From an uncultured bacterium (GTDB lineage Bacteria; Patescibacteriota; Minisyncoccia; Phycocordibacterales; UBA9973), in the NCBI GenBank assembly GCA_937903035.1, contig CALCZP010000002.1, positions 20,739 to 84,738 on the forward strand: a stretch of 64,000 bases of DNA. Reading direction: 5' to 3'. Both the position numbers and the translations under genes were made by a program. Shown in pieces: positions 1,497 through 38,348 of the stretch (positions are counted from its first letter, which is position 1; each line of letters starts with the position of its first letter). The notes below the pieces were generated by a model that was not told where the DNA came from, did not search any database, and saw nothing but the letters and a program-made list of their open reading frames with translations.

Positions 1497-2717
1497 ATGT
1501 ACAAACTCGAACATGAATTACTCACGAAGTATGCAAAAGTAATGGTTCATTATGCTATTGGAAATGGTAACGGACTTAACAAGGGCGAAACAGTCTTTCT
1601 TATTGGTCAGGAGTGCACAAAGGATCTCTATCTCGAAATTTGCAAAGAAATTTGGCGAAGTGGAGGAAATGTAATCCATCGATACCTTCCTGATGAAGTA
1701 GGACGTTATGGTATAAACCGATCATTGCTTGAGATAGGTACCGATGAACAACTTACATTCTTTCCAACTCCGTATTGGCAAGGTGTTACTGATGTTATGG
1801 ATCATATTCTATTTATCATTGCTGATCCAGATATGCATGCATTGGATGGAATACTTGCTGAAAAAATTTGCAAAATGGAGGAATCAAAGGCTCCCTTTAT
1901 GGAAATGCGTGAAAAGAAAGAATCCGTAGGCAAACTCTCTTGGACACTCTGTTTGTATGGAACCGAGTCAATGGCCAAAGAAGCAGGTATAAATCTGCAA
2001 GAGTATTGGGAACAGATCATCAATGCTTGTTATCTCCAAGACGAAGATCCGGTTGCAACTTGGCGTAATACTAAGGAAGAGATTGTTAAAATCAAGTCTT
2101 GGCTTTCTGAACTCAAGATTGAAAGGGTGCACGTTGAAGCAGATGGAATTGATCTTTGGATCAAGGTTGGAGCAGATCGTAAATGGCTTGGAGCATCGGG
2201 GCACAATATACCAAGCTTCGAAGTCTTTACATCACCGGACTGGAGAGGAACATCTGGAAAGATTTTTTTCAATCAGCCGTTATACTATCAGTGTAAAAGG
2301 ATTTCTGGCATTCAGCTTGAGTTCAAAAATGGTGTTATTACTCATGCTTCAGCAGCAGAAAATGAAGATACGCTGTTACAGATGATTGCGATTGAAAACG
2401 CCAACAAAATAGGAGAGTTTTCTTTGACTGACAGACGTCATTCCAGGATTACCAAACCGATGGCAACAACTCTGTTTGATGAAAATATGGGTGGAAAATA
2501 TGGCAATACGCATATTGCACTTGGTATGTCCTATAAAGAAGCTTTTGTCGGTGATATTGGGGGCACTACAGATGAAGGATGGGAAGCGAGAGGTTTCAAT
2601 CTTTGTCATAAGGTTCACACCGACATCATCAGTACTGCAAACAGAAAAGTAACAGCTACTTTGGCAAACGGTGAGTCGTTAGTAATTTATGAAAACGGAC
2701 AATTTACAGTTGTCTAA
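1497..2717 (+). CDS. M29-family aminopeptidase (AmpS/PepS-like)
   Basis: 406 aa. The N-terminal pattern LLxKYAKVMVxYAIGxxxGLNKGETVFL and the overall length resemble thermophilic-aminopeptidase (M29) proteins. Family assigned from memory of the sequence pattern. Confidence 0.6.
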   Translation: MYKLEHELLTKYAKVMVHYAIGNGNGLNKGETVFLIGQECTKDLYLEICKEIWRSGGNVIHRYLPDEVGRYGINRSLLEIGTDEQLTFFPTPYWQGVTDVMDHILFIIADPDMHALDGILAEKICKMEESKAPFMEMREKKESVGKLSWTLCLYGTESMAKEAGINLQEYWEQIINACYLQDEDPVATWRNTKEEIVKIKSWLSELKIERVHVEADGIDLWIKVGADRKWLGASGHNIPSFEVFTSPDWRGTSGKIFFNQPLYYQCKRISGIQLEFKNGVITHASAAENEDTLLQMIAIENANKIGEFSLTDRRHSRITKPMATTLFDENMGGKYGNTHIALGMSYKEAFVGDIGGTTDEGWEARGFNLCHKVHTDIISTANRKVTATLANGESLVIYENGQFTVV

Positions 2718-2726
2718 TTTATTCAA

Positions 2727-2747
2727 GGAGCTTCGGCTCCTTTTTCT
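2727..2747 (+). terminator. Terminator hairpin AGGAGC-TTCG-GCTCCT plus TTTTTC after the aminopeptidase gene
   Basis: 6-bp GC-rich stem, UUCG tetraloop and a T-run, 10 nt after the stop at 2717. Confidence 0.55.
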
Positions 2748-2828
2748 ATTTATTCCGAACTCTTGAGGATGTTTGGAATTATTTGACAAAATAAAAAATA
2801 TTGTGTAATTTTGGTAAAAATAATCATT

Positions 2829-3091
2829 ATGAAACAAACTCTTGAAATGAAAACCTTATTTAAGAAAGGTGATAAAGTTAAAATCACCAGACTTGAAAAA
2901 ATGGTTACACTGACGAAGGTGAGGTATTCTCAGCTTCCTCGAAAGAAGTTGGTATTAAGATAACTCAGTCTCCAACTCAAGGTGCGGTAGGTATGGAGGT
3001 AAGGTTTGGGATGAGAGATGGGGTATGGAAATACCTGAATGGAAATACGTATAGCAAGAGAGATTCTGGGTATTCCATTGCAAAAATTTAA
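2829..3091 (+). pseudogene. Small gene interrupted by a frameshift in an A6 run (2896-2901). If the run is restored to A7 it gives an ~86-aa protein beginning MKQTLEMKTLFKKGDKVKITRLEKNGYTDEGEVFSASSKEVGIKITQSPTQGAVGMEV..., which may be a DUF2945 / hypervirulence-associated TUDOR-like small protein
   Basis: Frame A runs ATG 2829 to TAA at 2946. The -1 frame continues from 2903 to TAA at 3089-3091 with a coherent sequence. The junction is exactly at GAAAAAATGG. A promoter-like TTGACA sits at 2785 and a hairpin terminator at 3102-3131. Confidence 0.35.
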
Positions 3092-3101
3092 TAAAAACTA
3101 G

Positions 3102-3131
3102 AGATGCTTTAGTAATAACGCATCTTTTTTA
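3102..3131 (+). terminator. Terminator hairpin AGATGC...GCATCT plus TTTTTT
   Basis: 6-bp stem with a 12-nt loop, followed by T6. Confidence 0.4.
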
Positions 3132-3163
3132 TTTTGTCTAAATTAGATTCAAACATCGTTCAA

Positions 3164-3195
3164 GCATTCCGAACATTAGAGGATGTTCGGAATGC
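3164..3195. promoter_or_regulatory. Perfect 13-bp inverted repeat GCATTCCGAACAT-N6-ATGTTCGGAATGC, directly upstream of a promoter-like TTGACT(3203)...TAGACT(3224) for ORF 3247
   Basis: Read directly. The same half-site ATGTTCGGAAT recurs at 153-167, 2755-2782 (imperfect) and 3545-3569. Confidence 0.45.
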
Positions 3196-3246
3196 TCTGA
3201 TATTGACTCCTATTTAAAACCGACTAGACTGGAGAAAACATTTGCC

Positions 3247-3624
3247 ATGAGTAAGCTATACAAATGCAAAAAGAAAGTATTGGATTTTATACAAGCTGCT
3301 GGTGATACTGGGGCTACAGAAAGTCAGCTAGTATGTGTTATTAATGAATTTAATAGGGAAGAATGTATGTTTGAATACGATATCAATCCTCTAACTCCAG
3401 CTTCAATTATTGAGCAGCTTGTATTCAAGTTCGAAGACCTTCTTTTTGAAAAGAGATTTATTCCAAAGAAAGAACTTTTCTTCTTTTGGATTTACAAATC
3501 TTCGCCACCTCCAGGAAAGGTGGTTTTTCTTTTGTCTCTACTAGCTCGGAATGTTGAAGGATGTTCGAATGAGTTTAGGGTAATAAAAAACCCATCACGA
3601 ATGATGGGTTGTTGTAAGAATTGA
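3247..3624 (+). CDS. hypothetical protein (125 aa). The N-terminal region could be a winged-helix DNA-binding fold, so it may be the regulator for the adjacent palindromes (speculative)
   Basis: ORF with a promoter-like sequence and an operator-like inverted repeat upstream. Its 3' end runs through a hairpin at 3589-3615, so the true stop may be earlier. Confidence 0.4.
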   Translation: MSKLYKCKKKVLDFIQAAGDTGATESQLVCVINEFNREECMFEYDINPLTPASIIEQLVFKFEDLLFEKRFIPKKELFFFWIYKSSPPPGKVVFLLSLLARNVEGCSNEFRVIKNPSRMMGCCKN

Positions 3625-3631
3625 ATGAATC

Positions 3632-4033
3632 TTACTCAACAGTGATTACTCCTTTACGAGTTTTTGTTGAATAATAAGCCTTAATTGTAACAATTTCTTT
3701 TCTATAAAATCCAAGAAGGTAGTCTTCCTCAGCGAAACATTTGAAGTCCTCAAAACTGAGTTTTTTAGCATACACTCCTGGTTCTATTTTCTCCGGCTTT
3801 TTAACAAAAAATGATTCCGAAACACATTCTTTGTTAGTGGAAAAAGTTAGGTTCCAGGATTGACCACCGCCATCTTCCGCCTCAATAGAGTTGATGATTG
3901 CAGCAATATACTTTTCATTTTCATTTTTTTCAAAACAAAAAGGAACTAACCTTTTTTCGGCTAAAAGGCGTAAACCGTCAAACAATTCCTCTCTTGAGGG
4001 ACCGTTTGTAATCTGAATTGTTTTTTGTAACAT
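3632..4033 (-). CDS. hypothetical protein (133 aa)
   Basis: Clean ORF convergent with 3247-3624. No recognisable motif. Confidence 0.45.
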   Translation of the reverse strand: MLQKTIQITNGPSREELFDGLRLLAEKRLVPFCFEKNENEKYIAAIINSIEAEDGGGQSWNLTFSTNKECVSESFFVKKPEKIEPGVYAKKLSFEDFKCFAEEDYLLGFYRKEIVTIKAYYSTKTRKGVITVE

Positions 4034-4203
4034 CGTACGATGAATTTAAAAGAACTCTTTATGCGTTTTACAGAGGATAAAGAATACTCTGGAGCTATGA
4101 AGCAATCTTTCCGTACAGAAAGAACTATCTGCATCATAGCACAAAATAATTGACAAGTCAAGTATGATATGCTATCATACAGTTAAATCAAACTTAAAAA
4201 ATT

Positions 4204-4581
4204 ATGAACTATAAGCTTTTCTACACATGCCTTATAACATTCTTTGGCATGATGTTTTGGTTACTGTTTCAGCAGGGCTCTATGGACTTTATTGCTGTCA
4301 GAATAATCATCGCCTTTATCTCAGCAATCCTTCTTTTCTTTTCTGTAACATGGAATGAAAAAGGTGGTTGGAAAAAGGCAGTGGTAGTACTTCTGGTGAT
4401 AATAGGTTTCGGTTCAATCGCAAACTTTGCTTTTGGCTGGGGTATCGCACATTATCCAGGAATTACACTACTGACAATGCCAGGGATACTTGTTCTTGGA
4501 CTTTTATACATAAAGTTTGTGGAACCAAAAATTCTGAACAAAAAGCCAAAACAGAAAATGCGTCCTGAGATTTATAATTAA
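4204..4581 (+). CDS. small integral membrane protein (3-4 TM helices)
   Basis: Hydrophobic throughout. The upstream TTGACA (4150-4155) and extended -10 TGCTATCAT overlap the palindrome GTATGATA-TGC-TATCATAC (4162-4180). Confidence 0.5.
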   Translation: MNYKLFYTCLITFFGMMFWLLFQQGSMDFIAVRIIIAFISAILLFFSVTWNEKGGWKKAVVVLLVIIGFGSIANFAFGWGIAHYPGITLLTMPGILVLGLLYIKFVEPKILNKKPKQKMRPEIYN

Positions 4582-4769
4582 ACTAATTTGTCCTTTTACC
4601 GAAATGCCTCACTTAATAGTGGGGCTTTTTTCTTTCCTCCAGACCTTCACAACATACACAACGTTCACGTGCTCGCTTGGAGGAACGCATTTCGAACTTT
4701 TGACTGGGCTGAATTATACAGCGATACTAAGTTCCACTTAGAAAATACTAACAGGTTGCTTGCACTAGC

Positions 4770-6617
4770 TTAAAGAGTTACCTGTCTGACAATCTCTCTA
4801 ATTTCAATACTTTCTGGGTTTGCATCGTCTGCAAGATATGTCGTGAGTTGGTTATTGCAGAAATCGATTGTTTCAGTAAGACCCTTGGTGATCCCTAGAT
4901 AATGTTCTAGATCACCATTTTTAAGAATATACATTTTGTTTGCGTACTCTCCGTCAATTCTAGCCTCCCAATCTGTATTTCTCGCTTTGAATGCAGTTAC
5001 TTCAGCAGGTGCTTTTACGCTCTGTCCTTTGTCTGCAGGATAGAAAAGATCGATAGCAAAATCCAGATCATTGATGCCATAGACTGATAAACCAAAGCTC
5101 GTAAAAAGAGCACTCCATTCTTGATGATTACCTTTGCCGTTAGTTTCAAGCACAGCAATCTCTTGATCAAGTTCTGGGTACTTTTCTTGAATGATAGATT
5201 TGAAAAAGTATCGATCTGTATCGCCCTCAACTAAGAGAACTTTTTTGGCAAAGAATGCGTAAGTTGATCTGGTATTGTCGAGTATCTTGATGAGTATTCT
5301 TTGCTCAGTTGTCAGTGTAGGTGCTTTGATGGCGGTGTATCCATCAGATGTTAGGGAGAAACGCTTTACTTGATTGATAGTCGATGAATTGATCAGTGCT
5401 TCTGAATGAGTTACCAAAATATATTGACAACTTTGTTCTTTGTTCAGTTCTCGAATAACCTGCAGATATTCATTTTGAAACTGGTAATGAAGATGTATCT
5501 CTGGCTCATCAATAATAACTACGCCACCTTTTAGATCACCACGCCCATAAGACTCGAAGACGAGGTGAATAATTGCTTTTTGTCCCGCACTCAAACTGTT
5601 TATGTCATTGAGCTTTTTGTTTCGGCGCAAATCAAGAAACTCAAATGCATATTGCCAAGTTCTGAGGTCTATCAACCTGATCTTGCATTCAAGATTGATG
5701 AGTTTCAGTTTCTTATTTATCGAAATAATAAAGGGTAGTTCATTAGCACTCTTTTCGCATTCTGCATCGTCCATTTTTCCTGAAATGAGACTAAAATGTT
5801 TTTCCGCTACTCGAAGCCTGACAAGACCAAAGATGCTTGGCTCTCCTTGGTCATTTGCATTTAAGCTTTTTGAGAAATCACGAGTTTTGATTTGTTGCAT
5901 TTGCTGTGATGGAAGCTGATCTCGTAGTGAGATAGATGTATCAAAAGCATGATAGTTTCGATAACTTGAAATTAAAGTGAAAGACTCATACAACGGGGCA
6001 ATCGGTGCTGTTGGGTGTTCTATGTTGTATATCTCGATAAGCTCTTTATAGAAATTGTAGTCAGAAAGATATTCAAACCCAAAATCGTGAGCACCTTGTT
6101 GAAATGCGACTGAAAAAGACTGGTTAGTTTTGTTCAAGGTAATATCAAGTGTGTAGTTTTCTTGATGTGCCGTCAGTCCTGTAAGACCTCGTACTGTATA
6201 TGAAAGAAGTGGGTTAAGAGAAGCCTGATTGTCTCTGATGTGTTGTAGGTTCTGCAGATCAATAGCATCGAGCTTTATTTCAAGTCTAATTTTCTGATCT
6301 TTGTCCTCAGTGTTCCAGTTTGGTTCCAAGCGAAAACCGCTGTATGTCTGGGCATTCACAGGTGTAAGGATTTGCTTTCTCTCGTCCGCAGTTACAGTAC
6401 TTTTCCGTGAATACAACTCTTGATTTACATTGAACTGCTTATATAGCACTCTCTTGAAAAGAAAGTTTACAACCTCCAATGCAGTAGATTTTCCTGCACC
6501 ATTCTCTCCAATAATGATATTTAGACCATCCTCAAAGACGATCTGCTCAGCGTTAGCTACATCGTCATGGTGCTTAAAACTTAGGATGTTTGATACTCGT
6601 AATGACTTGATCTTCAT
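4770..6617 (-). CDS. OLD-family (overcoming lysogenization defect) ATP-dependent endonuclease, class-1-like: N-terminal ABC/AAA ATPase plus C-terminal TOPRIM
   Basis: Walker A GENGAGKST near the N-terminus. Walker B/D-loop LVIIDEPEIHLH. C-terminal TOPRIM signature VLLVEGDTDRYFF, with DxD (GINDLDF) about 45 residues later. No adjacent UvrD-like helicase, so it is not a Gabija pair. Confidence 0.75.
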   Translation of the reverse strand: MKIKSLRVSNILSFKHHDDVANAEQIVFEDGLNIIIGENGAGKSTALEVVNFLFKRVLYKQFNVNQELYSRKSTVTADERKQILTPVNAQTYSGFRLEPNWNTEDKDQKIRLEIKLDAIDLQNLQHIRDNQASLNPLLSYTVRGLTGLTAHQENYTLDITLNKTNQSFSVAFQQGAHDFGFEYLSDYNFYKELIEIYNIEHPTAPIAPLYESFTLISSYRNYHAFDTSISLRDQLPSQQMQQIKTRDFSKSLNANDQGEPSIFGLVRLRVAEKHFSLISGKMDDAECEKSANELPFIISINKKLKLINLECKIRLIDLRTWQYAFEFLDLRRNKKLNDINSLSAGQKAIIHLVFESYGRGDLKGGVVIIDEPEIHLHYQFQNEYLQVIRELNKEQSCQYILVTHSEALINSSTINQVKRFSLTSDGYTAIKAPTLTTEQRILIKILDNTRSTYAFFAKKVLLVEGDTDRYFFKSIIQEKYPELDQEIAVLETNGKGNHQEWSALFTSFGLSVYGINDLDFAIDLFYPADKGQSVKAPAEVTAFKARNTDWEARIDGEYANKMYILKNGDLEHYLGITKGLTETIDFCNNQLTTYLADDANPESIEIREIVRQVTL

Positions 6618-6661
6618 GGTGTAATACTAGCATTTTTTGCCCTGTTTAAGTATTTCAAAAA

Positions 6662-7600
6662 ATGTTAAAATACACTTTACTTATGAGCAATGTAACAAAG
6701 CCCAAAAAAAGGACTTCAAAGAGCCTTAAAAACAAGAAGAAGTTTACTTTTATAGACTTATTTGCAGGGATCGGTGGCTTTCATTACGCTTTCCATAACG
6801 TAGGTGCAGAATGCGTCTTTTCTTCAGAATGGGACGAACACGCAAGAAAAACCTATCAGACCAACTTTGAAAAAATAAGTCCTGATCTATTTAAGTCTGG
6901 TAATTTTGTTGGAGATATTACAAAAGTAGATAAGAAAGCTATTCCTGATTTTGATATTTTGACGGGAGGATTTCCGTGCCAGCCATTTAGTCAGGCAGGG
7001 TTCAAAAAAGGTTTTAGTGATACGAGAGGCACACTTTTTTATGATATTGCGGACATAATCAAAGTTAAAAAACCTAAAGCTTTTTTCCTAGAAAATGTTA
7101 GAGGGCTTCTCGCTCACGATAACGGTAAAACTTTTGAAACGATCAAGAGTGTTTTGACTGAAGAGTTAGGATACTCACTATTTTTTAATATCGTTAAAGC
7201 TTCTGATCATGGCTTGCCTCAAAATCGCCCTCGACTATTTATGATCGGTTTTAGAAATAAGAAAATACCTTTTTCTTTCCCTGAAAAAAGACCCCTGGAG
7301 TTCACCATGTCAGATGTATTTGGTGAGCCTGTAAATCGTGATATTGGCTTTACTTTGCGTGTTGGTGGCAAAGGCTCTGTAATTACTGATAGACGAAATT
7401 GGGATAGTTATATGGTAAATGGAAAGCCTAAAAGATTATCCTCAAAGGAGGGTAAGAAAATGCAGGGGTTTCCAGATGACTTTGTTTTCCCAGTCTCTGA
7501 AAGTCAGGCAATGAAGCAATTAGGAAATAGCGTAGCCATATACGCCATACAAGATTACGCACAAAAGATAATTGAAGCACTTGAAAATCATTATGAATAA
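6662..7600 (+). CDS. DNA (cytosine-5)-methyltransferase, the modification subunit of a type II R-M system
   Basis: m5C-MTase motifs: I FIDLFAGIGGF, IV GGFPCQPFS, VI FLENVRGL, VIII QNRPRLFMIGF, X GNSVAI. The true start may be the internal Met at 6683. Confidence 0.9.
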   Translation: MLKYTLLMSNVTKPKKRTSKSLKNKKKFTFIDLFAGIGGFHYAFHNVGAECVFSSEWDEHARKTYQTNFEKISPDLFKSGNFVGDITKVDKKAIPDFDILTGGFPCQPFSQAGFKKGFSDTRGTLFYDIADIIKVKKPKAFFLENVRGLLAHDNGKTFETIKSVLTEELGYSLFFNIVKASDHGLPQNRPRLFMIGFRNKKIPFSFPEKRPLEFTMSDVFGEPVNRDIGFTLRVGGKGSVITDRRNWDSYMVNGKPKRLSSKEGKKMQGFPDDFVFPVSESQAMKQLGNSVAIYAIQDYAQKIIEALENHYE

Positions 7601-8675
7601 TCAAAAACAAACAACAGGAAATACAGGAGAATGGAGTGAGTTATACGCTCTCGCTTTTCTCTTGGCTAATGGTGGTGCATACGGTGCTGACAAAGATCAA
7701 AACAGAAAAGAGGATTTGTTCTACAAGGTTCTGAAGATAATCTTTGCTGAAAAAGTGGGTAAAGAAAAGATGACTTACGAAATCAATGATGGAGTTATCG
7801 ATGTCTTTGCAGGTTTGAATAAAATCGCCTCAATAAAAACACAAAAGATACAAAGCATTCTTAAAAAGATGTTCGAGACTTTATCTGCAAAAAATGTAGG
7901 GCGAGCCTTTCCACTAGAAGCAGGTTCAGAGATGATGCAACTCTTACAGAAACAAGTCATTAAGGCTTCAAGCTCAGATAAGAAAGACCTTGATCTAGTG
8001 GTTCTTGATCTGAAAACAAACCAGCCAAGTCCAGAGATTGGCTTCAGTATAAAATCCCAACTCGGAAGCCCCTCAACTCTAGTAAATGCTTCAAGTGCAA
8101 CAAACTTTACTTACGAGATACTTGATAAGGATATGAAAGTCCCTACGCAATTACCAAAATTGCACGAGAAAAATGTTAAAGATAACATCAATCTTTTGAT
8201 GGCTTCTGGATATAACATTGTTTTTCGTAAAGTAGACAGTGAGAAGTTTGAACACAACCTTTCTTTGATCGATAGCAATCTGGCGACATATATCGCAAAA
8301 ATACTTTTGTCATATTACGCACGAGAAGCAAGTAATTTATCGGGTCTAGTTTCTCATAACTTTCCTGCATCTGATCAACAGAGCAAACAGCCAACTCATA
8401 AGATAAAAGAGTTCCTGAGTATTATGGCTTTGGGAATGATGCCTAATACTGATTGGAATGGAATACTAACAAGTCTTGGAGGTTTTCTGTTGGTTAAAAA
8501 AGATGGTGATGTATTGTGCTATTACCTCTACAACCTCGAAGATTTCCAAGAATATCTGCTAAATAATACAAAGCTCGATACACCAAGCACCACTCGATAC
8601 GGAATTGGAAAAATCATAGAGGAAGACAATCGCTTTTATATAAAGCTCAATCTACAGGTTCGATTTACTAAATAA
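7594..8675 (+). CDS. Type II restriction endonuclease, HpaII-family-like
   Basis: The ATG at 7594 overlaps the MTase stop (ATGAATAA), which is typical R-M coupling. The N-terminus GNTGEWSELYALAFLLANGGAYGADKD matches my recollection of the conserved HpaII-family N-terminal block (GEWSELY...). ORF-track start 7572 trimmed to 7594. Confidence 0.6.
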
Positions 8676-8794
8676 ATTACACAAAAGATCGCTCTACACA
8701 TCTGTCTTTTTGAGGTGTTTTTCGATATAATGCAATTACAGCTGAATAAAGCCGACCTAACCCCTACAGCCTTAAAACTTTAGGATATGGTCGC

Positions 8795-8951
8795 AAACCG
8801 CAAGCAACGTAAAAACCCGATCATTAGGGCGTTGCTTGCGTTACATGGGGAAACCTGTGTATGAGTCTTCGGACTCACCTAGTGGTCGGATTTTTGCGTC
8901 TTACCCTCCTAGTTTTAAAAATAAAGCAAAACAAATCGCAAGCAACGATTA
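8795..8951 (+). promoter_or_regulatory. Structured leader in front of ORF 8951. CGCAAGCAACG occurs at 8799-8809 and again at 8937-8947 (the second copy abuts the ATG). A single complementary CGTTGCTTGCG lies at 8830-8840. A GAGTC-UUCG-GACTC hairpin lies at 8864-8878
   Basis: Read directly. Two identical segments compete for one complement, and the second copy covers the ribosome-binding region. Confidence 0.35.
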
Positions 8952-9379
8952 TGAATACAAACAATATCTCTTCCTGGAGTACAGGAAGAAAGTTAGTCGT
9001 TTTTTTATTAGTTCCCATCTTCATTGCAGTAGTCGTAGGTATGGCAAGCAGTCCAACTCCTGCTCCTGTCCAAAAGACGGCAGAAGAGATCGCATACCAG
9101 AAGAAGCATGACTTTGCTTCATTGGCGAAGATGAATGTCGAGATGATGCTCAAAGCTCCGTCTACAGCAAAGTTCAATACTTCTCCGACCATCAAGGAAG
9201 AGAATGGTATCTACTCGATCAACTCATGGGTTGATAGCGAGAACAGCTATGGAGCGATGATCAGAAGCCAGTGGTCAGCCAAGGCTCACTACATCGGAGG
9301 AGACTCTGAAGATGAGATCGGAACAGGCGCAAACTGGATCATTGACGAGTTCATTTTTGACGGGAAAAAGGTCAAATAG
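8951..9379 (+). CDS. membrane-anchored / secreted hypothetical protein (142 aa from the internal Met)
   Basis: N-terminal TM segment LVVFLLVPIFIAVVVGM. ORF-track start 8861 trimmed to the Met that follows the structured leader. Confidence 0.45.
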   Translation: MNTNNISSWSTGRKLVVFLLVPIFIAVVVGMASSPTPAPVQKTAEEIAYQKKHDFASLAKMNVEMMLKAPSTAKFNTSPTIKEENGIYSINSWVDSENSYGAMIRSQWSAKAHYIGGDSEDEIGTGANWIIDEFIFDGKKVK

Positions 9380-9390
9380 CAAATGATGCA

Positions 9391-9594
9391 TTAACAGTGG
9401 AAAAAACAGTGGTGAGGGGGTCAAAAACACGCAAAAAAACACGCAAAACGGTATCTGATCTTTTTGGACAATAACAGTGTGAAAAACAGTGTGGGGAGGA
9501 TCAAAAACAGTGAAAAAAACAGTGAAAAGTACCTCGAAAAGCATCACAAGAAAAAGTACATTAACAGCGATAAAAACAGCGAGAGAGGGTCAAA
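9391..9594. repeat. Iteron-like composite direct-repeat array of three ~37-bp units spaced ~80-88 bp apart. Each unit is a doublet of AACAGTG/AACAGCG separated by A5-6, followed by a G-rich TGAGGGGGTCAAAAAC-type tail. Interleaved doublets ACGCAAAA x2 and AGTGAAAA x2
   Basis: Units at 9391-9428, 9471-9508 and 9559-9594, read directly. They lie immediately upstream of the winged-helix gene 9630-10262. Confidence 0.6.
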
Positions 9595-9629
9595 TTGCGG
9601 TGTACTTTGTCGACAAAAAATACTAAAGT

Positions 9630-10262
9630 ATGTCTATGACAAAGTTGGCATCTAATGCAAACCAAAAAGTAAAGCTAATCCTAGAAAAAATCGTTGAAGA
9701 ATACGATTTAGGAAATGGTAGTGGCGACATCACACTAGGAAGTCATCATTTCCTAAAAGATACAGGTATAGATACTAATCAATTCCTAAGGATACTGAGA
9801 AATCTTGAACAGAACCATATTCTTGAAAGCTTTAAAGTGCACGCAAACGCTAGAACTGATGATGGCGATCTGGTCTGTTTCTTGAAGCCATTAAACCACT
9901 TTAAATCAAGAGCTGAAGATTATATTGAAAGACTTGAAGTTCCAGTAGAGTCTGCTCCTGGTTTCTTCTTGTATCTTGATAAAAGCAATTTTTGGCATAC
10001 TGATAAAAAGAAATACTCTTACCCGATGAATAACGCACCAGGACGTTTAGCGATCTTAAAATACCTAGCAGAAAACAAGGGAGTTCAACCTACTAAAGAA
10101 ATAGCTTCTTTTTTGGGTAGAACAACTAAAAGGATTATGAATGATGTGGGAAAAATAAGAGCAGAAATCAAAGAACATCTAAAGCTCCCAGATGTTATAG
10201 AAAACAGCAAGCCAGATGGTTACTACATCAACCCCAAGTATACAGTTATAGTTACTGACTAA
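9630..10262 (+). CDS. hypothetical DNA-binding protein (putative winged-helix). Candidate replication initiator or regulator acting on the upstream repeats
   Basis: 210-aa ORF. The C-terminal segment RLAILKYLAENKGVQPTKEIASFLGRTTKRIMNDVGKI is HTH/winged-helix-like. Its position next to the iterons is only suggestive. Confidence 0.45.
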   Translation: MSMTKLASNANQKVKLILEKIVEEYDLGNGSGDITLGSHHFLKDTGIDTNQFLRILRNLEQNHILESFKVHANARTDDGDLVCFLKPLNHFKSRAEDYIERLEVPVESAPGFFLYLDKSNFWHTDKKKYSYPMNNAPGRLAILKYLAENKGVQPTKEIASFLGRTTKRIMNDVGKIRAEIKEHLKLPDVIENSKPDGYYINPKYTVIVTD

Positions 10263-10382
10263 GTACTCTCGCTCTCCTGTTAATATCTAGGATCAATGTC
10301 TTATCTTAAAAAGGTTTTTTAAGATGTGAAGAGTACTAGAAGCGTATATACAGAGTACATATCTGACACATAAAATCATTAT

Positions 10383-10565
10383 GTGATCAGCGATGCAACA
10401 ATTAAGAAGTTCCAACAAGTAGTCGAGAGTGAGTACCATGTCATTCTTGATGAAAAGGAAGCGAGAGAAGTTCTCACTAACTGGGTTGGTTATTTTGACT
10501 TGCTTGCAAAGATCGATCACAGAATACAATCAGAAAGTCAGAGGTCGTTAGTGAGTCCTCTTTAA
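10383..10565 (+). CDS. small hypothetical protein (60 aa)
   Basis: ORF in a 530-nt gap. Sequence looks protein-like but has no RBS or motif support. Confidence 0.25.
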   Translation: MISDATIKKFQQVVESEYHVILDEKEAREVLTNWVGYFDLLAKIDHRIQSESQRSLVSPL

Positions 10566-10574
10566 AAAACCGAC

Positions 10575-10660
10575 TACTAACTTGTATTTGCATGTAGATA
10601 ATAGCGCCTGACACACTGAGTGAGACTTCTCAGCAGGCGACCTCATCTGCATACAAGTCA
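10575..10660. other. Nested imperfect inverted repeats (CTTGTATTTGCATGTAGAT ... ATCTGCATACAAG enclosing CGCCTG...CAGGCG). Candidate oriT, att or sRNA-like structured site
   Basis: Read directly. Lies upstream of the RHH-like small gene and the recombinase. Confidence 0.25.
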
Positions 10661-10792
10661 AGCAACTGTATCGAGATGTTTGCTATGAGGGGGTTGAAAC
10701 ATTTTGATAGATTTTTTGAAAAATTACTAATTTAACTATCCCAATCTGTAAAAAACCAATACAGATGAGGGAGGAAAAAGTCTAAACAAAAT

Positions 10793-11023
10793 ATGTCAAC
10801 AAAGAGACAAAAGCTATATAGCAAAGAAGATATTAAGCTTGCACAAGAAGAAAGTAAAAGAGTTGGAAAATACTTTACTCGTAAAACAGCCAAAAGGAAA
10901 ACAATACAGGTTAGGATCGGTGAAAAATGGCATCAAAAGATCAAAGAAGTCGCTGGTGAAGAAAAGATAATGATTTCATTTTTTCTTGATCGAGTTTGTG
11001 AGCACTTCTTTAAGCATTACTAA
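10793..11023 (+). CDS. small basic protein (76 aa), possibly a ribbon-helix-helix DNA-binding protein (MobC-, Arc- or RDF-like)
   Basis: Good SD (AGGGAGG) 8-14 nt upstream. Lys/Arg-rich. The KTIQVRIGEKWHQKIKEVA segment is compatible with an RHH beta-strand plus helix. It sits directly 5' of the recombinase. Confidence 0.45.
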   Translation: MSTKRQKLYSKEDIKLAQEESKRVGKYFTRKTAKRKTIQVRIGEKWHQKIKEVAGEEKIMISFFLDRVCEHFFKHY

Positions 11024-11038
11024 TTATTTACTAATCAC

Positions 11039-12610
11039 ATGAATAAACCAACAAAAACAAAAGCCGTTATATATGCCAGAGTTTCTTCTAAAGAGCAGGA
11101 AGAAACTGGCTACTCATTAAACTCACAAGAGGAGCTTCTAAATAATTACTCAACAAGTCGAAACGACTTCAATGTAGTAAAAGTATTTAGGATTTCTGAG
11201 TCTGCGAGTGGGAAAATCCAGCGCACAACCTTTACTGAAATGATTAAGTTTATGGACAAGAATAAAATAAATATCCTTGTCTGTGAGAAAGTCGATCGAC
11301 TCACGAGAAACTTCAAAGATGCATTGATTATCGATGAATGGCTAGATCAGGATGAAAACCGACAGGTGCACTTGGTCAAGGACTCTCTAGTGATGCATAA
11401 GCATTCAAAATCGCAAGAAAAGCTTAACTGGGGTATTAGAATACTCTTCGCAAAAAATTACACAGACAATCTTTCTGAAGAAGTTAAAAAGGGTCAGAAG
11501 CAAAAAATAAAAGAGGGTTGGCTACCAACCACTCCTCCACTTGGTTATAAAACTGTAGGAGAAAAAGGACATAAAATCCATGTGATCGATGAGACTGTTG
11601 CACCCTATATAAAAGAAATGTTTGCCTTGTATGCCACAGGTAATTATTCAACAGTTGCGTTGGGAGAAAAAATGTACAAACAAGGCTTCCGAAGTCGATC
11701 AGGTGTTCAGGTAGTAAAAAGCCAAATACATAAAATACTCTCTGAGCCTTTTTATTACGGAAAACTTGTATGGAATGGAAATCTTTTTGAGGGCAAACAC
11801 GACCCACTTATCTCAAAAGATTTGTTTGATCAGGTTCAGGCAAAAATGTCTCGTGGTGCAATACCGTATCACAATAAAGGGCTTACTGAGTTAAGAGGTA
11901 AAATCTTCTGCGGTTCTTGTAATAAAACCGTTACTTGGGAATTACAAAAAGGCACTATGTATGGTGGTTGTAAGCAGTGTAAGGCACAGCTTGGCAAAGA
12001 TAAGAAGTATATCCACCAGGAAGACCTAGAAAGCGATCTACTGGCTCATATTGCCTCTGTAGCTCCTCTTAGTGAGAAAGTTATAGATGTGCTTAATCAG
12101 GCTTTAAAAGAGAGCCACAGTGAGGAAATAGGGCTACATGAGACTCAAACCAGGAACATCAACAATCAACTAGAAAGAATAAGGCAGAGAATGAAAAACA
12201 TGTACCTGGACAAGATTGATGAGAGAATAAGCGGAGACTTCTACGATGAGCAGGTCGCACAGTTTGCAGAAGAAAAAGAAGCATTACTCCACTCTCTGAA
12301 AAAACTCGAAGCAGATAATACTGAATACTACCGAGTTGGATTTATGATCCATGAGATTGCACTGAGAGCGAGAGAGATTTATCTCAATGAAAACGCATCG
12401 ATTGAAGAGCGCAGAATGCTTCTTGCTTATGCATTCTCGAACATCACTGTTTTAGCAGGAAATATAAAGGCAGAATACACAAAACCTTTTGCTTTTCTTG
12501 CAGAATGGATGCCAAGAGTAAATGAAGTTCTCGAACTGGAAAAAACCCTTGGTACAAAAGGAAAAGAGAGCACTTTCGTGCCCTCTCATCCTATCGTGCT
12601 CCCCCGGTAG
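11039..12610 (+). CDS. large serine recombinase (resolvase/invertase N-terminal catalytic domain, recombinase domain, zinc ribbon and coiled coil)
   Basis: N-terminal VIYARVSSKEQ with catalytic Ser, and DRLTRN. Zinc ribbon CGSCNK...CKQCK. 523 aa. The stop codon overlaps the tRNA-Asn 3' end. Confidence 0.9.
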   Translation: MNKPTKTKAVIYARVSSKEQEETGYSLNSQEELLNNYSTSRNDFNVVKVFRISESASGKIQRTTFTEMIKFMDKNKINILVCEKVDRLTRNFKDALIIDEWLDQDENRQVHLVKDSLVMHKHSKSQEKLNWGIRILFAKNYTDNLSEEVKKGQKQKIKEGWLPTTPPLGYKTVGEKGHKIHVIDETVAPYIKEMFALYATGNYSTVALGEKMYKQGFRSRSGVQVVKSQIHKILSEPFYYGKLVWNGNLFEGKHDPLISKDLFDQVQAKMSRGAIPYHNKGLTELRGKIFCGSCNKTVTWELQKGTMYGGCKQCKAQLGKDKKYIHQEDLESDLLAHIASVAPLSEKVIDVLNQALKESHSEEIGLHETQTRNINNQLERIRQRMKNMYLDKIDERISGDFYDEQVAQFAEEKEALLHSLKKLEADNTEYYRVGFMIHEIALRAREIYLNENASIEERRMLLAYAFSNITVLAGNIKAEYTKPFAFLAEWMPRVNEVLELEKTLGTKGKESTFVPSHPIVLPR

Positions 12611-12670
12611 GATTCGAACCTACGACCAATCGCTTAACAGGCGACTGCTCTACCGCTGAGCTACAGGGGA
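12599..12670 (-). tRNA. tRNA-Asn (anticodon GUU)
   Basis: Minus-strand sequence TCCCCTGTAGCTCAGCGGTAGAGCAGTCGCCTGTTAAGCGATTGGTCGTAGGTTCGAATCCTACCGGGGAG folds as a canonical cloverleaf (7-bp acceptor, GCTC/GAGC D-stem, anticodon loop CTGTTAA, T-loop TTCGAAT). It begins UCCCCUG like enterobacterial tRNA-Asn. No CCA is encoded. Confidence 0.85.
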
Positions 12671-12729
12671 ATATATGCTCATAAATGAGCGAGGAAACTA
12701 TACCATTTCAGGCTGGCATTTTCAATCCT

Positions 12730-12957
12730 TTAAAGCGGGCGACCGTCGGTTGTTGGATTGTTCCAAACGTCGAATCGGAACCACCCATAGCCTTCGGGTG
12801 GGGTTGCTAGGAGTTCTCGAGACCCAGGTGCAGCACTATCAAATGCCCAGTGGTCATACGGTGCTGCAGTTGGTGCAATCCATTCGCCTCCAGAGAGGTG
12901 GGGGATGGCGAACCAGAGAAAGAATATAAGGCCAACTATTGCGATAATGCGCTCCAT
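12730..12957 (-). CDS. small secreted/membrane protein (75 aa), unusually GC-rich
   Basis: Signal/TM segment IIAIVGLIFFLWFAI. A -10-like TATAGTATA lies upstream on the minus strand. It could instead be a non-coding RNA region (contains a C-UUCG-G hairpin). Confidence 0.3.
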   Translation of the reverse strand: MERIIAIVGLIFFLWFAIPHLSGGEWIAPTAAPYDHWAFDSAAPGSRELLATPPEGYGWFRFDVWNNPTTDGRPL

Positions 12958-31367: not shown

Positions 31368-31449
31368 GCTGGAGTGGCGGAATTGGTATACGCGCTAGTC
31401 TTAGGAACTAGTGCCGCAAGGCTTAAGGGTTCAAGTCCCTTCTCCAGCA
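31368..31449 (+). tRNA. tRNA-Leu (anticodon UAG), class II with a long variable arm
   Basis: GCTGGAG/CTCCAGC acceptor stem, anticodon loop CTTAGGA, variable hairpin GCC-GCAA-GGC, T-arm AAGGG-TTCAAGT-CCCTT. Confidence 0.8.
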
Positions 31450-31465
31450 CAGTTTAAATTAATAT

Positions 31466-31538
31466 GCTCCTATAGCTCAGTTGGTAGAGCAGCTCCCTCT
31501 TAAGGAGACGGTCGTGGGTTCGAATCCCTCTGGGGGCA
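31466..31538 (+). tRNA. tRNA-Lys (anticodon CUU)
   Basis: GCTCCTA/TGGGGGC acceptor stem (two G-U pairs), D-arm TAGCTCAGTTGGTAGAGC, anticodon loop CTCTTAA, T-loop TTCGAAT. One T-T mismatch in the T-stem. Confidence 0.7.
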
Positions 31539-31550
31539 CTATAGATATAC

Positions 31551-31592
31551 AAAACAAAAAACACTAAATATATTTAGTGTTTTTTGTTTTGT
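31551..31592. terminator. Perfect 21-bp AT-rich palindrome (CAAAACAAAAAACACTAAATA|TATTTAGTGTTTTTTGTTTTG) between convergent tRNA genes. Bidirectional terminator-like
   Basis: Read directly. Confidence 0.45.
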
Positions 31593-31595
31593 ATT

Positions 31596-31620
31596 GGGGG
31601 CGGGACTCGAACCCGCACGC
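31596..31620 (-). repeat. 25-nt duplicate of the tRNA-Leu(UAA) 3' end (T-arm plus acceptor: GTGCGGGTTCGAGTCCCGCCCCCA). No 5' half is foldable, so this is a partial tRNA and a candidate att-site scar
   Basis: Identical to 31664-31688 (plus-strand coordinates). The 40 nt between the copies do not form D or anticodon arms. Confidence 0.5.
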
Positions 31621-31660
31621 CGTATAAGGGCAAGGGATTTTAGTAATTTCACCACCACAG

Positions 31661-31743
31661 TGCTGGGGGCGGGACTCGAACCCGCACGGCATTGCTGCCT
31701 GAGGATTTTAAGTCCTCTATGTCTACCATTCCATCATCCCAGC
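31661..31743 (-). tRNA. tRNA-Leu (anticodon UAA), class II
   Basis: Minus strand GCTGGGATGATGGAATGGTAGACATAGAGGACTTAAAATCCTCAGGCAGCAATGCCGTGCGGGTTCGAGTCCCGCCCCCAGCA. Anticodon stem GAGGA/TCCTC, loop CTTAAAA, variable hairpin GGCA-GCAA-TGCC. One A-C mismatch at the base of the acceptor stem. Confidence 0.7.
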
Positions 31744-31813
31744 ACTCTGGAGGCGAAACAAAAATCTCCCGATGTACATTCCATCATCAATTTCACCTAA
31801 AAGGACATTTTGG

Positions 31814-31885
31814 AGACCCGAGCGAGAATCGAACTCGCGAATAGTTCTTTTGCAGAGAACCGCCTTACCACTTGGCCATCGGGTC
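31814..31885 (-). tRNA. tRNA-Cys (anticodon GCA)
   Basis: Minus strand GACCCGATGGCCAAGTGGTAAGGCGGTTCTCTGCAAAAGAACTATTCGCGAGTTCGATTCTCGCTCGGGTCT. Perfect acceptor, anticodon and T stems. Confidence 0.85.
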
Positions 31886-38259: not shown

Positions 38260-38342
38260 GCGTCGATGGTAGAGTGGTCAATTACATCAGACTGTAAATC
38301 TGACGCCTTCGGGCTACGCAGGTTCAAATCCTGCTCGGCGCA
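38260..38342 (+). tRNA. tRNA-Tyr (anticodon GUA), class II
   Basis: GCGTCGA/TCGGCGC acceptor stem (one G-U), 3-bp D-stem, anticodon stem TCAGA/TCTGA with loop CTGTAAA, variable hairpin, T-arm GCAGG-TTCAAAT-CCTGC. Confidence 0.75.
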
Positions 38343-38348
38343 CCCCAA

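Follow-up and report, generated by a model that had tools for sequence, protein, structure and literature searches.

A LOOT RNA leader from a candidate-phyla bacterium carries a copy of one main-stem strand beside the downstream start codon

The question raised by this locus is what role, if any, is played by a short sequence that is repeated on either side of its own complement directly in front of a gene. In the 64,000-nucleotide stretch of contig CALCZP010000002.1 (assembly GCA_937903035.1) of an uncultured member of the Patescibacteriota, here called the window and used for all coordinates, CGCAAGCAACG occurs at 8799–8809 and again at 8937–8947, and its complement CGTTGCTTGCG lies between them at 8830–8840. 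The second copy ends 3 nt 5′ of an ATG at 8951, which is also the start in independent gene calls on three other assemblies, and which opens a plus-strand ORF of 142 amino acids (8951–9379) with an N-terminal membrane anchor, no Pfam family and an assignment to the phage group phrog_13160, of unknown function. A first-pass annotation had drawn attention to these three segments and to a GAGTC-TTCG-GACTC hairpin, and had proposed that two alternative hairpins form, one of them occluding the translation initiation region, as in a riboregulator or thermosensor. The segments and the hairpin (8863–8876) were confirmed in the sequence, and a search of the 64 kb window for further copies of CGCAAGCAACG with at most one mismatch yielded none. 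The direct repeat proved to be longer than first noted, with 15 of 16 nt shared between CAAACCGCAAGCAACG (8794–8809) and CAAATCGCAAGCAACG (8932–8947). Direct repeats of 11 nt with copies no more than 150 nt apart are not rare in themselves, a rough estimate being 2–3 per 64 kb window.

An Rfam scan placed the locus in a known RNA family, the LOOT motif (RF03000), and revealed what the first-pass annotation had missed, namely that the first arm, its complement and the UUCG hairpin are the P2 and P4 elements of this RNA. The match, at 8754–8877, is full-length (model positions 1–121 of 121) and scores 74.0 bits against a gathering threshold of 46.4 (E = 4.7e-12), and the element begins about 45 nt upstream of the start first noted for it. 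LOOT takes its name from the lineages OP11, OD1 and TM7. All of its hallmarks are present in the window, including P1 with CCUAA and AUGG, the AAA junction, a long P2, P3 with a GAAA loop, and P4, the loop of which is UUCG in the window and more often GNRA in relatives. The Rfam consensus also has an inner P2 stem, which pairs poorly in the window; there a helix with the 3′ tail, termed S2, is the better-supported partner. The motif was described in 2017 as an orphan structured RNA of candidate-phyla bacteria (Weinberg et al., PMC5737381), and Rfam classes it as "Gene; sRNA", gives no function and ends its model at P4 (PMC7779021, PMC11701678). In the literature that we searched, the supplement of the 2017 paper aside, we found no functional study of LOOT and no description of the 5′ motif, the S2 tail, the leader behaviour or the strand copy that are described below; the second arm copy, next to the start codon and beyond the reach of the Rfam model, appears not to have been described before.

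The RNA of the window extends beyond the Rfam model in both directions, with a 5′ ACAAYUGAAUA motif and a 3′ S2 strand that includes a U-tract. On the plus strand a TATAAT hexamer at 8726–8731, read from the sequence, is a candidate −10 box of a putative LOOT promoter, and it is followed by ACAGCTGAATA at 8738–8748, the window form of an ACAAYTGAATA motif that recurs across the family. In most LOOT loci this motif lies 5–14 nt upstream of CCTAA or the Rfam start and is preceded by −10-like hexamers, and TAnnnT hexamers peak 26–33 nt 5′ of CCTAA in 104 LOOT loci among the matches listed; a simple sigma-70 scan of the window plus strand revealed no full promoter. The motif, which is outside the Rfam model, probably marks the true 5′ end of the transcript. 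The sequence AATAAAGC (8745–8752), which overlaps the end of this motif, recurs at 8920–8927 in the spacer that precedes the second arm copy.

Following the 5′ motif, the Rfam alignment places P1 at 8754–8792, comprising an outer GACC/GGUC helix, an internal loop with the invariant CCUAA and AUGG, and an inner hairpin; its two helices are 92–97% paired and covary. The junction J1/2 is an unpaired AAA (8795–8797) that is invariant in 148 sequences (columns A42–A44), and the first CGCAAGCAACG copy (8799–8809), located both by the alignment and by the repeat search, is the 5′ strand of P2. The P2 loop (8810–8828), containing an A-tract (8810–8815) and a core (8817–8828), is also the 5′ strand of S2, as judged from the minimum free energy fold, the duplex formed with the tail and the covariation of helices 4–6. 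The 3′ strand of P2 at 8830–8840 is complementary to both copies and is the candidate swapping strand. P3 (8842–8861) is 96–99% paired with an invariant GAAA loop at 8850–8853, and P4 (8863–8876) is the GAGUC-UUCG-GACUC hairpin, after which the 3′ strand of S2, supported by fold, duplex and covariation, occupies 8878–8897, past the end of the Rfam model. A poorly conserved spacer (8898–8932), which differs even among loci with the same arm, leads to AAA (8933–8935), a T and the second CGCAAGCAACG copy (8937–8947), a unit that copies J1/2 and the P2 5′ strand and that we term the strand mimic (8933–8947).

Relatives were sought with a degenerate pattern built from the Rfam consensus and the window, which matched 8 LOOTs in IMG/VR viral contigs and at least 120 stretches in each of the genome and metagenome collections, and filtering for P2 and P3 pairing left 201 distinct LOOTs among the matches listed. 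All 16 relatives tested with Rfam were LOOTs, with scores of 66–94 bits, and no other RNA family was found adjoining LOOT in 16 loci. Among the matches listed, the named sources are nearly all MAGs of the ultra-small CPR/Patescibacteria, a handful being binned under other names, and the nearest relatives of the window LOOT, L116 and L055, are from Saccharibacteria MAGs.

In the minimum free energy fold of the window RNA, which lacks P2, the P2 loop (8809–8828) pairs with the tail after P4 (8878–8897), which ends in UUUUUG. The resulting S2 helix comprises a core, 8878–8889 with 8817–8828, and an extension in which the U-tract 8891–8897 pairs with 8809–8815, and this pairing is possible at all loci. 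A tail-inclusive covariance model was aligned to 102 genome and viral LOOTs and to 89 metagenome LOOTs, giving two independent alignments. In both, P2 is 98–99% paired with changes on both sides in 9 of 10 pairs, the S2 core is 97–98% paired with all pairs covarying, and the A-tract:U-tract extension is 83–85% paired with 6–7 of 7 pairs covarying; the covariation scores were 0.74–0.78, against 0.23 and about 0.1 for the shuffled and slid controls. Folding of both conformers and covariation across homologous leaders had been put forward with the initial proposal as ways of examining it, and both spoke in its favour: the nested forms lie within about 4 kcal/mol of one another, a figure that covers nested states and leaves pseudoknots outside, and P2, S2 and the mimic all covary. 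The P2 hairpin alone is predicted at −20.9 kcal/mol.

Since S2 abuts the 5′ arm of P2 and leaves a link of 1–2 nt to the 3′ arm, the full S2 of about 20 bp should, on geometric grounds, be unable to coexist with P2, and a combination of P2 with the 12-bp S2 core as an H-type pseudoknot is feasible. Covariation that backs both alternatives is the signature to be expected of a switching RNA, and S2, as a third competing helix that joins the P2 loop to the 3′ tail, probably drives the switch. The G+C-rich S2 core has UUUUUG behind it; its "loop" spans about 50 nt and holds the P2 3′ strand, P3 and P4, and the U-tract is engaged with the A-tract. No intrinsic terminator was detected in a consensus scan of the window plus strand.

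Among the matches listed, the P2 5′ arm of a locus is repeated just downstream in 64 of 201 loci (32%), and this involves 38 distinct arms. In control tests, where an exact match of at least 8 nt to the P2 5′ arm of the same locus in the following 300 nt counted as a copy, copies occurred in 31 of the 96 loci of the genome and viral set among the matches listed, compared with 2 of 96 when the upstream flank was searched, 0 of 96 when the 3′ arm was used and 21 of 1920 with the arms of other loci. The metagenome set, again among the matches listed, gave 20 of 80, compared with 0 of 80 upstream, 1 of 80 for the 3′ arm and 11 of 1600 for other-locus arms. The copies are also positioned with respect to translation, in that 69% of them, among the matches listed, end 2–6 nt 5′ of an ATG (mode 3; null expectation 12%), and this ATG is the start of the first ORF of at least 40 amino acids in 50 of the 64 copy loci among the matches listed. 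At 9/10 identity in the pre-ATG register, arms of other loci match in 0.08% of trials and the own arm in 23.5%, and it is this family-wide difference that gives the repeat in the window its significance. The presence of the duplicated segment in homologous loci was thus borne out for about a third of the family, the remaining two thirds, among the matches listed, being without it. The distribution of identities is bimodal, implying two discrete classes of loci and no continuum, and a search for decayed mimics in loci without a copy gave a slight excess only (6 of 62 loci at rank 0 of 40; 12 loci with 7–8/10 identity, where about 8 were expected).

The arms are also highly local. In whole loci amounting to 1.48 Mb, arm 10-mers occur 36 times on the same strand 0–150 nt downstream and twice elsewhere, so that a search for targets in trans yielded only these two, about the level expected by chance. 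Among loci that share one arm type, such as CCGTCCAAAGTA or CCCGCTAGAG, the spacers diverge and the downstream genes are unrelated and yet the copy is kept, and in the subfamily of the window the mimic follows changes of the arm: the window and L208 carry CGCAAGCAACG and L116 carries CGCAACGAGC. In L208, which is the closest relative among the matches listed (96% identical), the mimic is preserved at 16 of 16 nt, and L199 has retained it together with the arm of the window next to a different spacer and a different cargo gene.

Comparison of copies with their arms defines what is copied. Arm positions 1 to 9 or 10 are identical in the copy, and identity is lost at position −1 and resumes in the junction: 53 of the 64 copy loci have AAA at −4 to −2 and 62 of 64 have A at −2, whereas loci that lack a copy show AAA at the corresponding place in 4.4% of cases. 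The break at −1 together with the retention of AAA indicates that the copied unit is exactly J1/2 plus the P2 strand, which goes beyond mere complementarity and argues that the mimic can replace the upstream strand within the folded core; a plain duplication is disfavoured because it would have kept position −1 as well. Some of the differences between copy and arm keep or improve pairing with the 3′ arm, as in L032, where C replaces U opposite G. None of the copy loci has a Shine-Dalgarno sequence. The mimic is thus a conserved and co-varying copy of one strand of the main stem and, as judged from sequence comparison, it points to strand swapping as a means of translation control.

Individual loci show further arrangements. 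L021 (minus strand, near 3340–3430) has two tandem arm copies, one on either side of the ATG. In L116 (1626–1690) a perfect copy lies at codons 4–9 of the ORF and a decayed copy (CGCAAG...) is found at the canonical −14 position, which suggests that mimics turn over as arms change. When the 201 LOOT loci among the matches listed are divided by P1 subtype, the mimic is present in 47 of 97 CCTAAC loci and 17 of 103 CCTAAA loci, and the trait is therefore spread unevenly over the LOOT subfamilies.

The P2 helix itself has an unusual evolutionary signature. G·U pairs occupy 4 of 1809 P2 cells (about 0.2%), whereas they make up 17% in P3, 11% in P1, 18% in P4 and 19% in S2, and their scarcity in P2 was repeated in both model-based alignments. 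At the same time P2 is hypervariable, with about 147 nine-mers in the 201 loci among the matches listed, and most of its positions accommodate each of the four Watson-Crick pair types. Between close scaffolds that are 80–85% identical the arms differ mostly at 4–6 of 10 positions, and stepwise evolution of P2 with a transition bias was rejected, the transition/transversion ratio being 0.92 in P2 against 1.23 in P3. The CaCoFold paper singled out LOOT for its extreme number of cross-covariations, which fit arms that change as blocks. A purely structural helix should show wobble, and it therefore appears that something requires exact complementarity; the G·U deficit extends to loci that lack a mimic and is therefore not accounted for by the mimic.

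The genomic surroundings identify the element as part of mobile DNA. In the window it lies in an island of about 8 kb (4770–12670) with housekeeping genes beyond both sides. The island begins with an OLD-family ATPase/TOPRIM nuclease (4770–6617, minus strand) and a restriction-modification pair consisting of a C5 methylase and an HpaII-type endonuclease (6662–8675), which are followed by LOOT, the 142-aa membrane-anchored protein, a block of iteron-like repeats with small ORFs, and a large serine integrase (11039–12610), whose last codons overlap the 3′ end of a tRNA-Asn gene (12598–12670, minus strand). The repeat block (9393–9581) contains four 19-nt units of AACAGTGnAAAAACAGTG, each with two AACAGTG half-sites, between the ORF at 8951–9379 and a 210-aa ORF at 9630–10262, and by their sequence these units resemble iterons or operators to which an island-encoded DNA-binding protein might bind. 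Neither terminase nor structural genes were found within 4770–12670, which indicates a defence island or prophage remnant and not a full prophage. A search of 2500–12800 for a repeat of the tRNA-Asn end that could represent the other att site gave none, and an origin of the LOOT repeat as an att-site or target-site duplication was rejected on this basis and because LOOT lies 3.7 kb from the att end. Elsewhere in the window, a tRNA cluster on both strands at 31368–31885 (Leu-TAG, Lys-CTT, Leu-TAA, Cys-GCA) and a tRNA-Tyr gene at 38260–38344 are ordinary housekeeping features.

In the family at large a homologous serine recombinase is encoded within 3.5 kb in 45 of 106 loci among the matches listed, and terminase, ParB-methylase and XRE-type genes recur near LOOT loci. 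The ORF downstream of LOOT is co-oriented, starts about 35 nt after S2, has a median length of about 150 aa and is highly diverse; about 70% of these ORFs encode an N-terminal membrane segment and many do not, and those directly downstream are mostly singletons, including membrane-anchored, nuclease-like and methylase proteins. The spacing from S2 to the ATG is equal with and without the mimic and, in both classes, an ATG about 35 nt past S2 leaves too little room for the ORF to have a promoter and leader of its own. Where the copy is absent, only 18% and 11% of the ORFs have a −10-like box or a Shine-Dalgarno sequence, respectively, of their own. Equal spacing and the rarity of such signals make LOOT look like a leader and not like a free-standing sRNA gene; co-transcription of LOOT and the ORF, with read-through of the U-tract, is assumed in what follows. 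In the window, a Shine-Dalgarno-like motif precedes only 5 of 32 long ORFs, and TATA(A/C/G)T occurs 8–15 nt before many ATGs (for example 20506, 21358, 38770, 55792, 34212, 35523 and, on the minus strand, 6617), which suggests, from these sequence motifs, that leaderless or near-leaderless mRNAs may be the norm in this host.

We see about an even chance that LOOT acts here in cis as a leader in which the 3′ strand of P2 exchanges one pairing partner for another and draws the initiation region into the folded LOOT core. In such a scheme 8738–8950 would constitute the LOOT-based leader of an accessory gene in an integrase-bearing CPR island, and the core could be closed by either of two equivalent strands. 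In one state, AAA and 8799–8809 would pair with 8830–8840 as P2, the P2 loop and tail would form the S2 core pseudoknot, and the U-tract and initiation region would remain free, so that the gene would be translated. In the other, S2 would zip up fully, A-tract with U-tract, P2 would have to open, and the freed 3′ strand would pair with the mimic (AAA-N-CGCAAGCAACG, −18 to −4 from the AUG) which, on its flexible spacer of about 35 nt, would be the only strand able to reach it. This second state would bury the ribosome landing site and presumably repress translation. Since P2 forms first and closes a smaller loop, a trigger or a slow isomerisation would be needed, and the selector of the state could be folding kinetics, a protein or processing.

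The idea of alternative hairpins thus held up well and was extended: the three-way pairing is conserved and covarying (64 of 201 loci and 38 arm types among the matches listed), with nested conformers close in energy. That one of them involves the initiation region is a well-founded idea, and occlusion would presumably mean repression. The thermosensor found no support. RNA thermometers such as ROSE and fourU are short, imperfect, weakly paired hairpins directly on the Shine-Dalgarno sequence or AUG; occlusion of the initiation region is conceivable in both cases, but the LOOT helices are perfect Watson-Crick duplexes of 10–11 bp, separated by about 100 nt of stable structure, and no Shine-Dalgarno sequence is involved. 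This reading was rejected, given also the predicted stability of the P2 hairpin. A metabolite riboswitch does not fit either, because the downstream genes are too diverse and form no coherent ligand-related set, and a type I toxin-antitoxin system, with a hydrophobic toxin of less than 60 aa, is discordant with downstream products of varied fold whose median length is about 150 aa. The strand-swap scheme has limits of its own. Two thirds of the loci among the matches listed have no mimic and have the same ORF spacing, so that the switch cannot be the core function of LOOT and the mimic must be an add-on, and the near-absence of G·U in P2 is not predicted by a simple structural switch.

Three-segment logic of this kind is familiar from attenuators and riboswitch platforms such as the ermC leader, where segment 2 pairs either with segment 1, as anti-sequestor, or with segment 3 in the initiation region. 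LOOT shares this logic but has no leader peptide and no conserved class of downstream gene; what it would sequester is a copied strand of a conserved tertiary core, unpaired AAA included, in place of a Shine-Dalgarno sequence, and the competitor of the anti-sequestor is the long-range S2 and not a ribosome or an obvious ligand pocket.

Four other explanations address the repeat itself. Coincidence, or a recent local duplication without function, could draw on the few such 11-mer repeats estimated per 64 kb and on the identity that any duplication yields, but the copy recurs as 38 sequences in 64 loci among the matches listed, in many CPR lineages, fixed relative to the ATG while spacer and gene vary, and its identity breaks at −1 and resumes at AAA, unlike that of a plain duplication; the comparison of copies with controls in both sets effectively refutes this reading, which we regard as exceedingly improbable. 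The segments might instead act as DNA, three sites of 10–11 bp (two direct, one inverted) binding a recombinase or repressor, or the copy might mark a junction for cargo exchange. A nearly pure Watson-Crick P2 (4 G·U in 1809 cells, against 11–19% in the other helices) is what a DNA inverted repeat would give, loci of one arm type carry different cargo genes starting right after the copy, and serine recombinases are frequent neighbours. We nevertheless consider DNA sites very unlikely: about 147 nine-mers in 201 loci among the matches listed are far more specificities than one would readily expect from a protein family; invariant RNA features (AAA-N-C, G-U and the intervening S2 strand) border the arms directly; strand-specific G·U pairs occur in every other helix; the flanking sequences lack palindromic symmetry; the island has its att site at tRNA-Asn, 3.7 kb away; collinearity holds among four independent assemblies, with neither an inversion nor a deletion; and the fixed distance of 3–4 nt between copy and ATG points to translation. 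A processing signal would account for the retention of an unpaired AAA at equal offset, as expected for a recognised site; AAA-N-C followed by a helix would be cleaved by a LOOT-core ribozyme or by a host RNase guided by the 3′ arm, at equivalent points 5′ of P2 and 14 nt ahead of the AUG, so that the mRNA would be matured in a host that mostly uses leaderless transcripts. The scarcity of Shine-Dalgarno motifs (5 of 32 ORFs), the many −10-like boxes 8–15 nt before ATGs and the compactness of a pseudoknotted core with an invariant GAAA agree with it. Set against these points, LOOT has no likeness to Rfam ribozyme families, cleavage at AAA-N|C would not remove the last 14 nt of the leader and the second site is missing from most LOOT loci, and we judge processing to be decidedly unlikely.

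An immunity or exclusivity RNA is a possible but unlikely alternative, and it has well-studied counterparts. In phages P4 (seqA-cI-seqC) and P1 (a1b1-c4-a2b2) a small structured RNA of a temperate element lies, on one transcript, between two copies of its complement, the downstream copy covers the site where ribosomes load for the first gene, and the three segments co-vary among heteroimmune relatives. In this C4 family the antisense segments are exposed in loops, RNase P takes part in processing the RNA from its leader, and repression is exerted in trans. By analogy with P4 CI or the c4 RNA of P1 and P7, LOOT would be released by termination or processing and its 3′ arm would act as antisense to the matching site near the cargo-gene start, either on the transcript from which it came or on that of a related element entering the cell, and specificity would reside in the rapidly changing arms. 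The order X–X′–X is alike, and so is the placing of the second X where translation of the following gene begins; the integrase, terminase, ParB-methylase and XRE contexts, with a serine recombinase within 3.5 kb in 45 of 106 loci among the matches listed, are those of temperate elements; arms that differ at 4–6 of 10 positions between scaffolds 80–85% identical, with transitions not in excess, behave as specificity segments would; and a U-tract follows S2. On the other hand, X′ in LOOT is one strand of a perfect stem, so that the antisense strand is locked and not exposed in a loop; the downstream genes encode diverse and unrelated accessory proteins, with no conserved antirepressor or replication gene; a target within about 4 kb is absent in two thirds of the loci among the matches listed, most LOOT loci having no downstream copy; and LOOT shows no sequence or structural kinship with these RNAs, the window giving no match to C4 (RF01695) at the gathering threshold. 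The signature of P2 has also led us to consider that P2 may be a programmable, Watson-Crick-only "address" read by a check for exact complementarity, whether by a nucleic-acid target matched to both strands or by a guide-checking protein, which would make LOOT a guide-like RNA of CPR phages and islands. We hold this to be quite unlikely; if it were true, the address would be rewritten at the start of a cargo gene in a third of the elements, with immunity, exclusion or targeting as possible purposes.

Returning to the strand-swap reading, the window holds an RNA of a known family to which a conserved regulatory extension, not described before, is attached. Since 2017 LOOT has stood as an orphan motif of a vast and largely uncultivated bacterial branch, and there is now a first concrete and testable hypothesis for its function, namely that it serves as leader to accessory genes, mostly with membrane-anchored products, that are carried by integrase-bearing or prophage elements. 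New to the family are a long-range helix outside the existing model that conflicts with the main stem and, in a third of cases among the matches listed, a mimic of a core strand next to the start codon that co-varies with the stem. The wobble-free and hypervariable P2 hints at a sequence-specific read-out, and these features may be relevant to phage immunity in the CPR and to the control of genes in organisms where the Shine-Dalgarno sequence is barely used.
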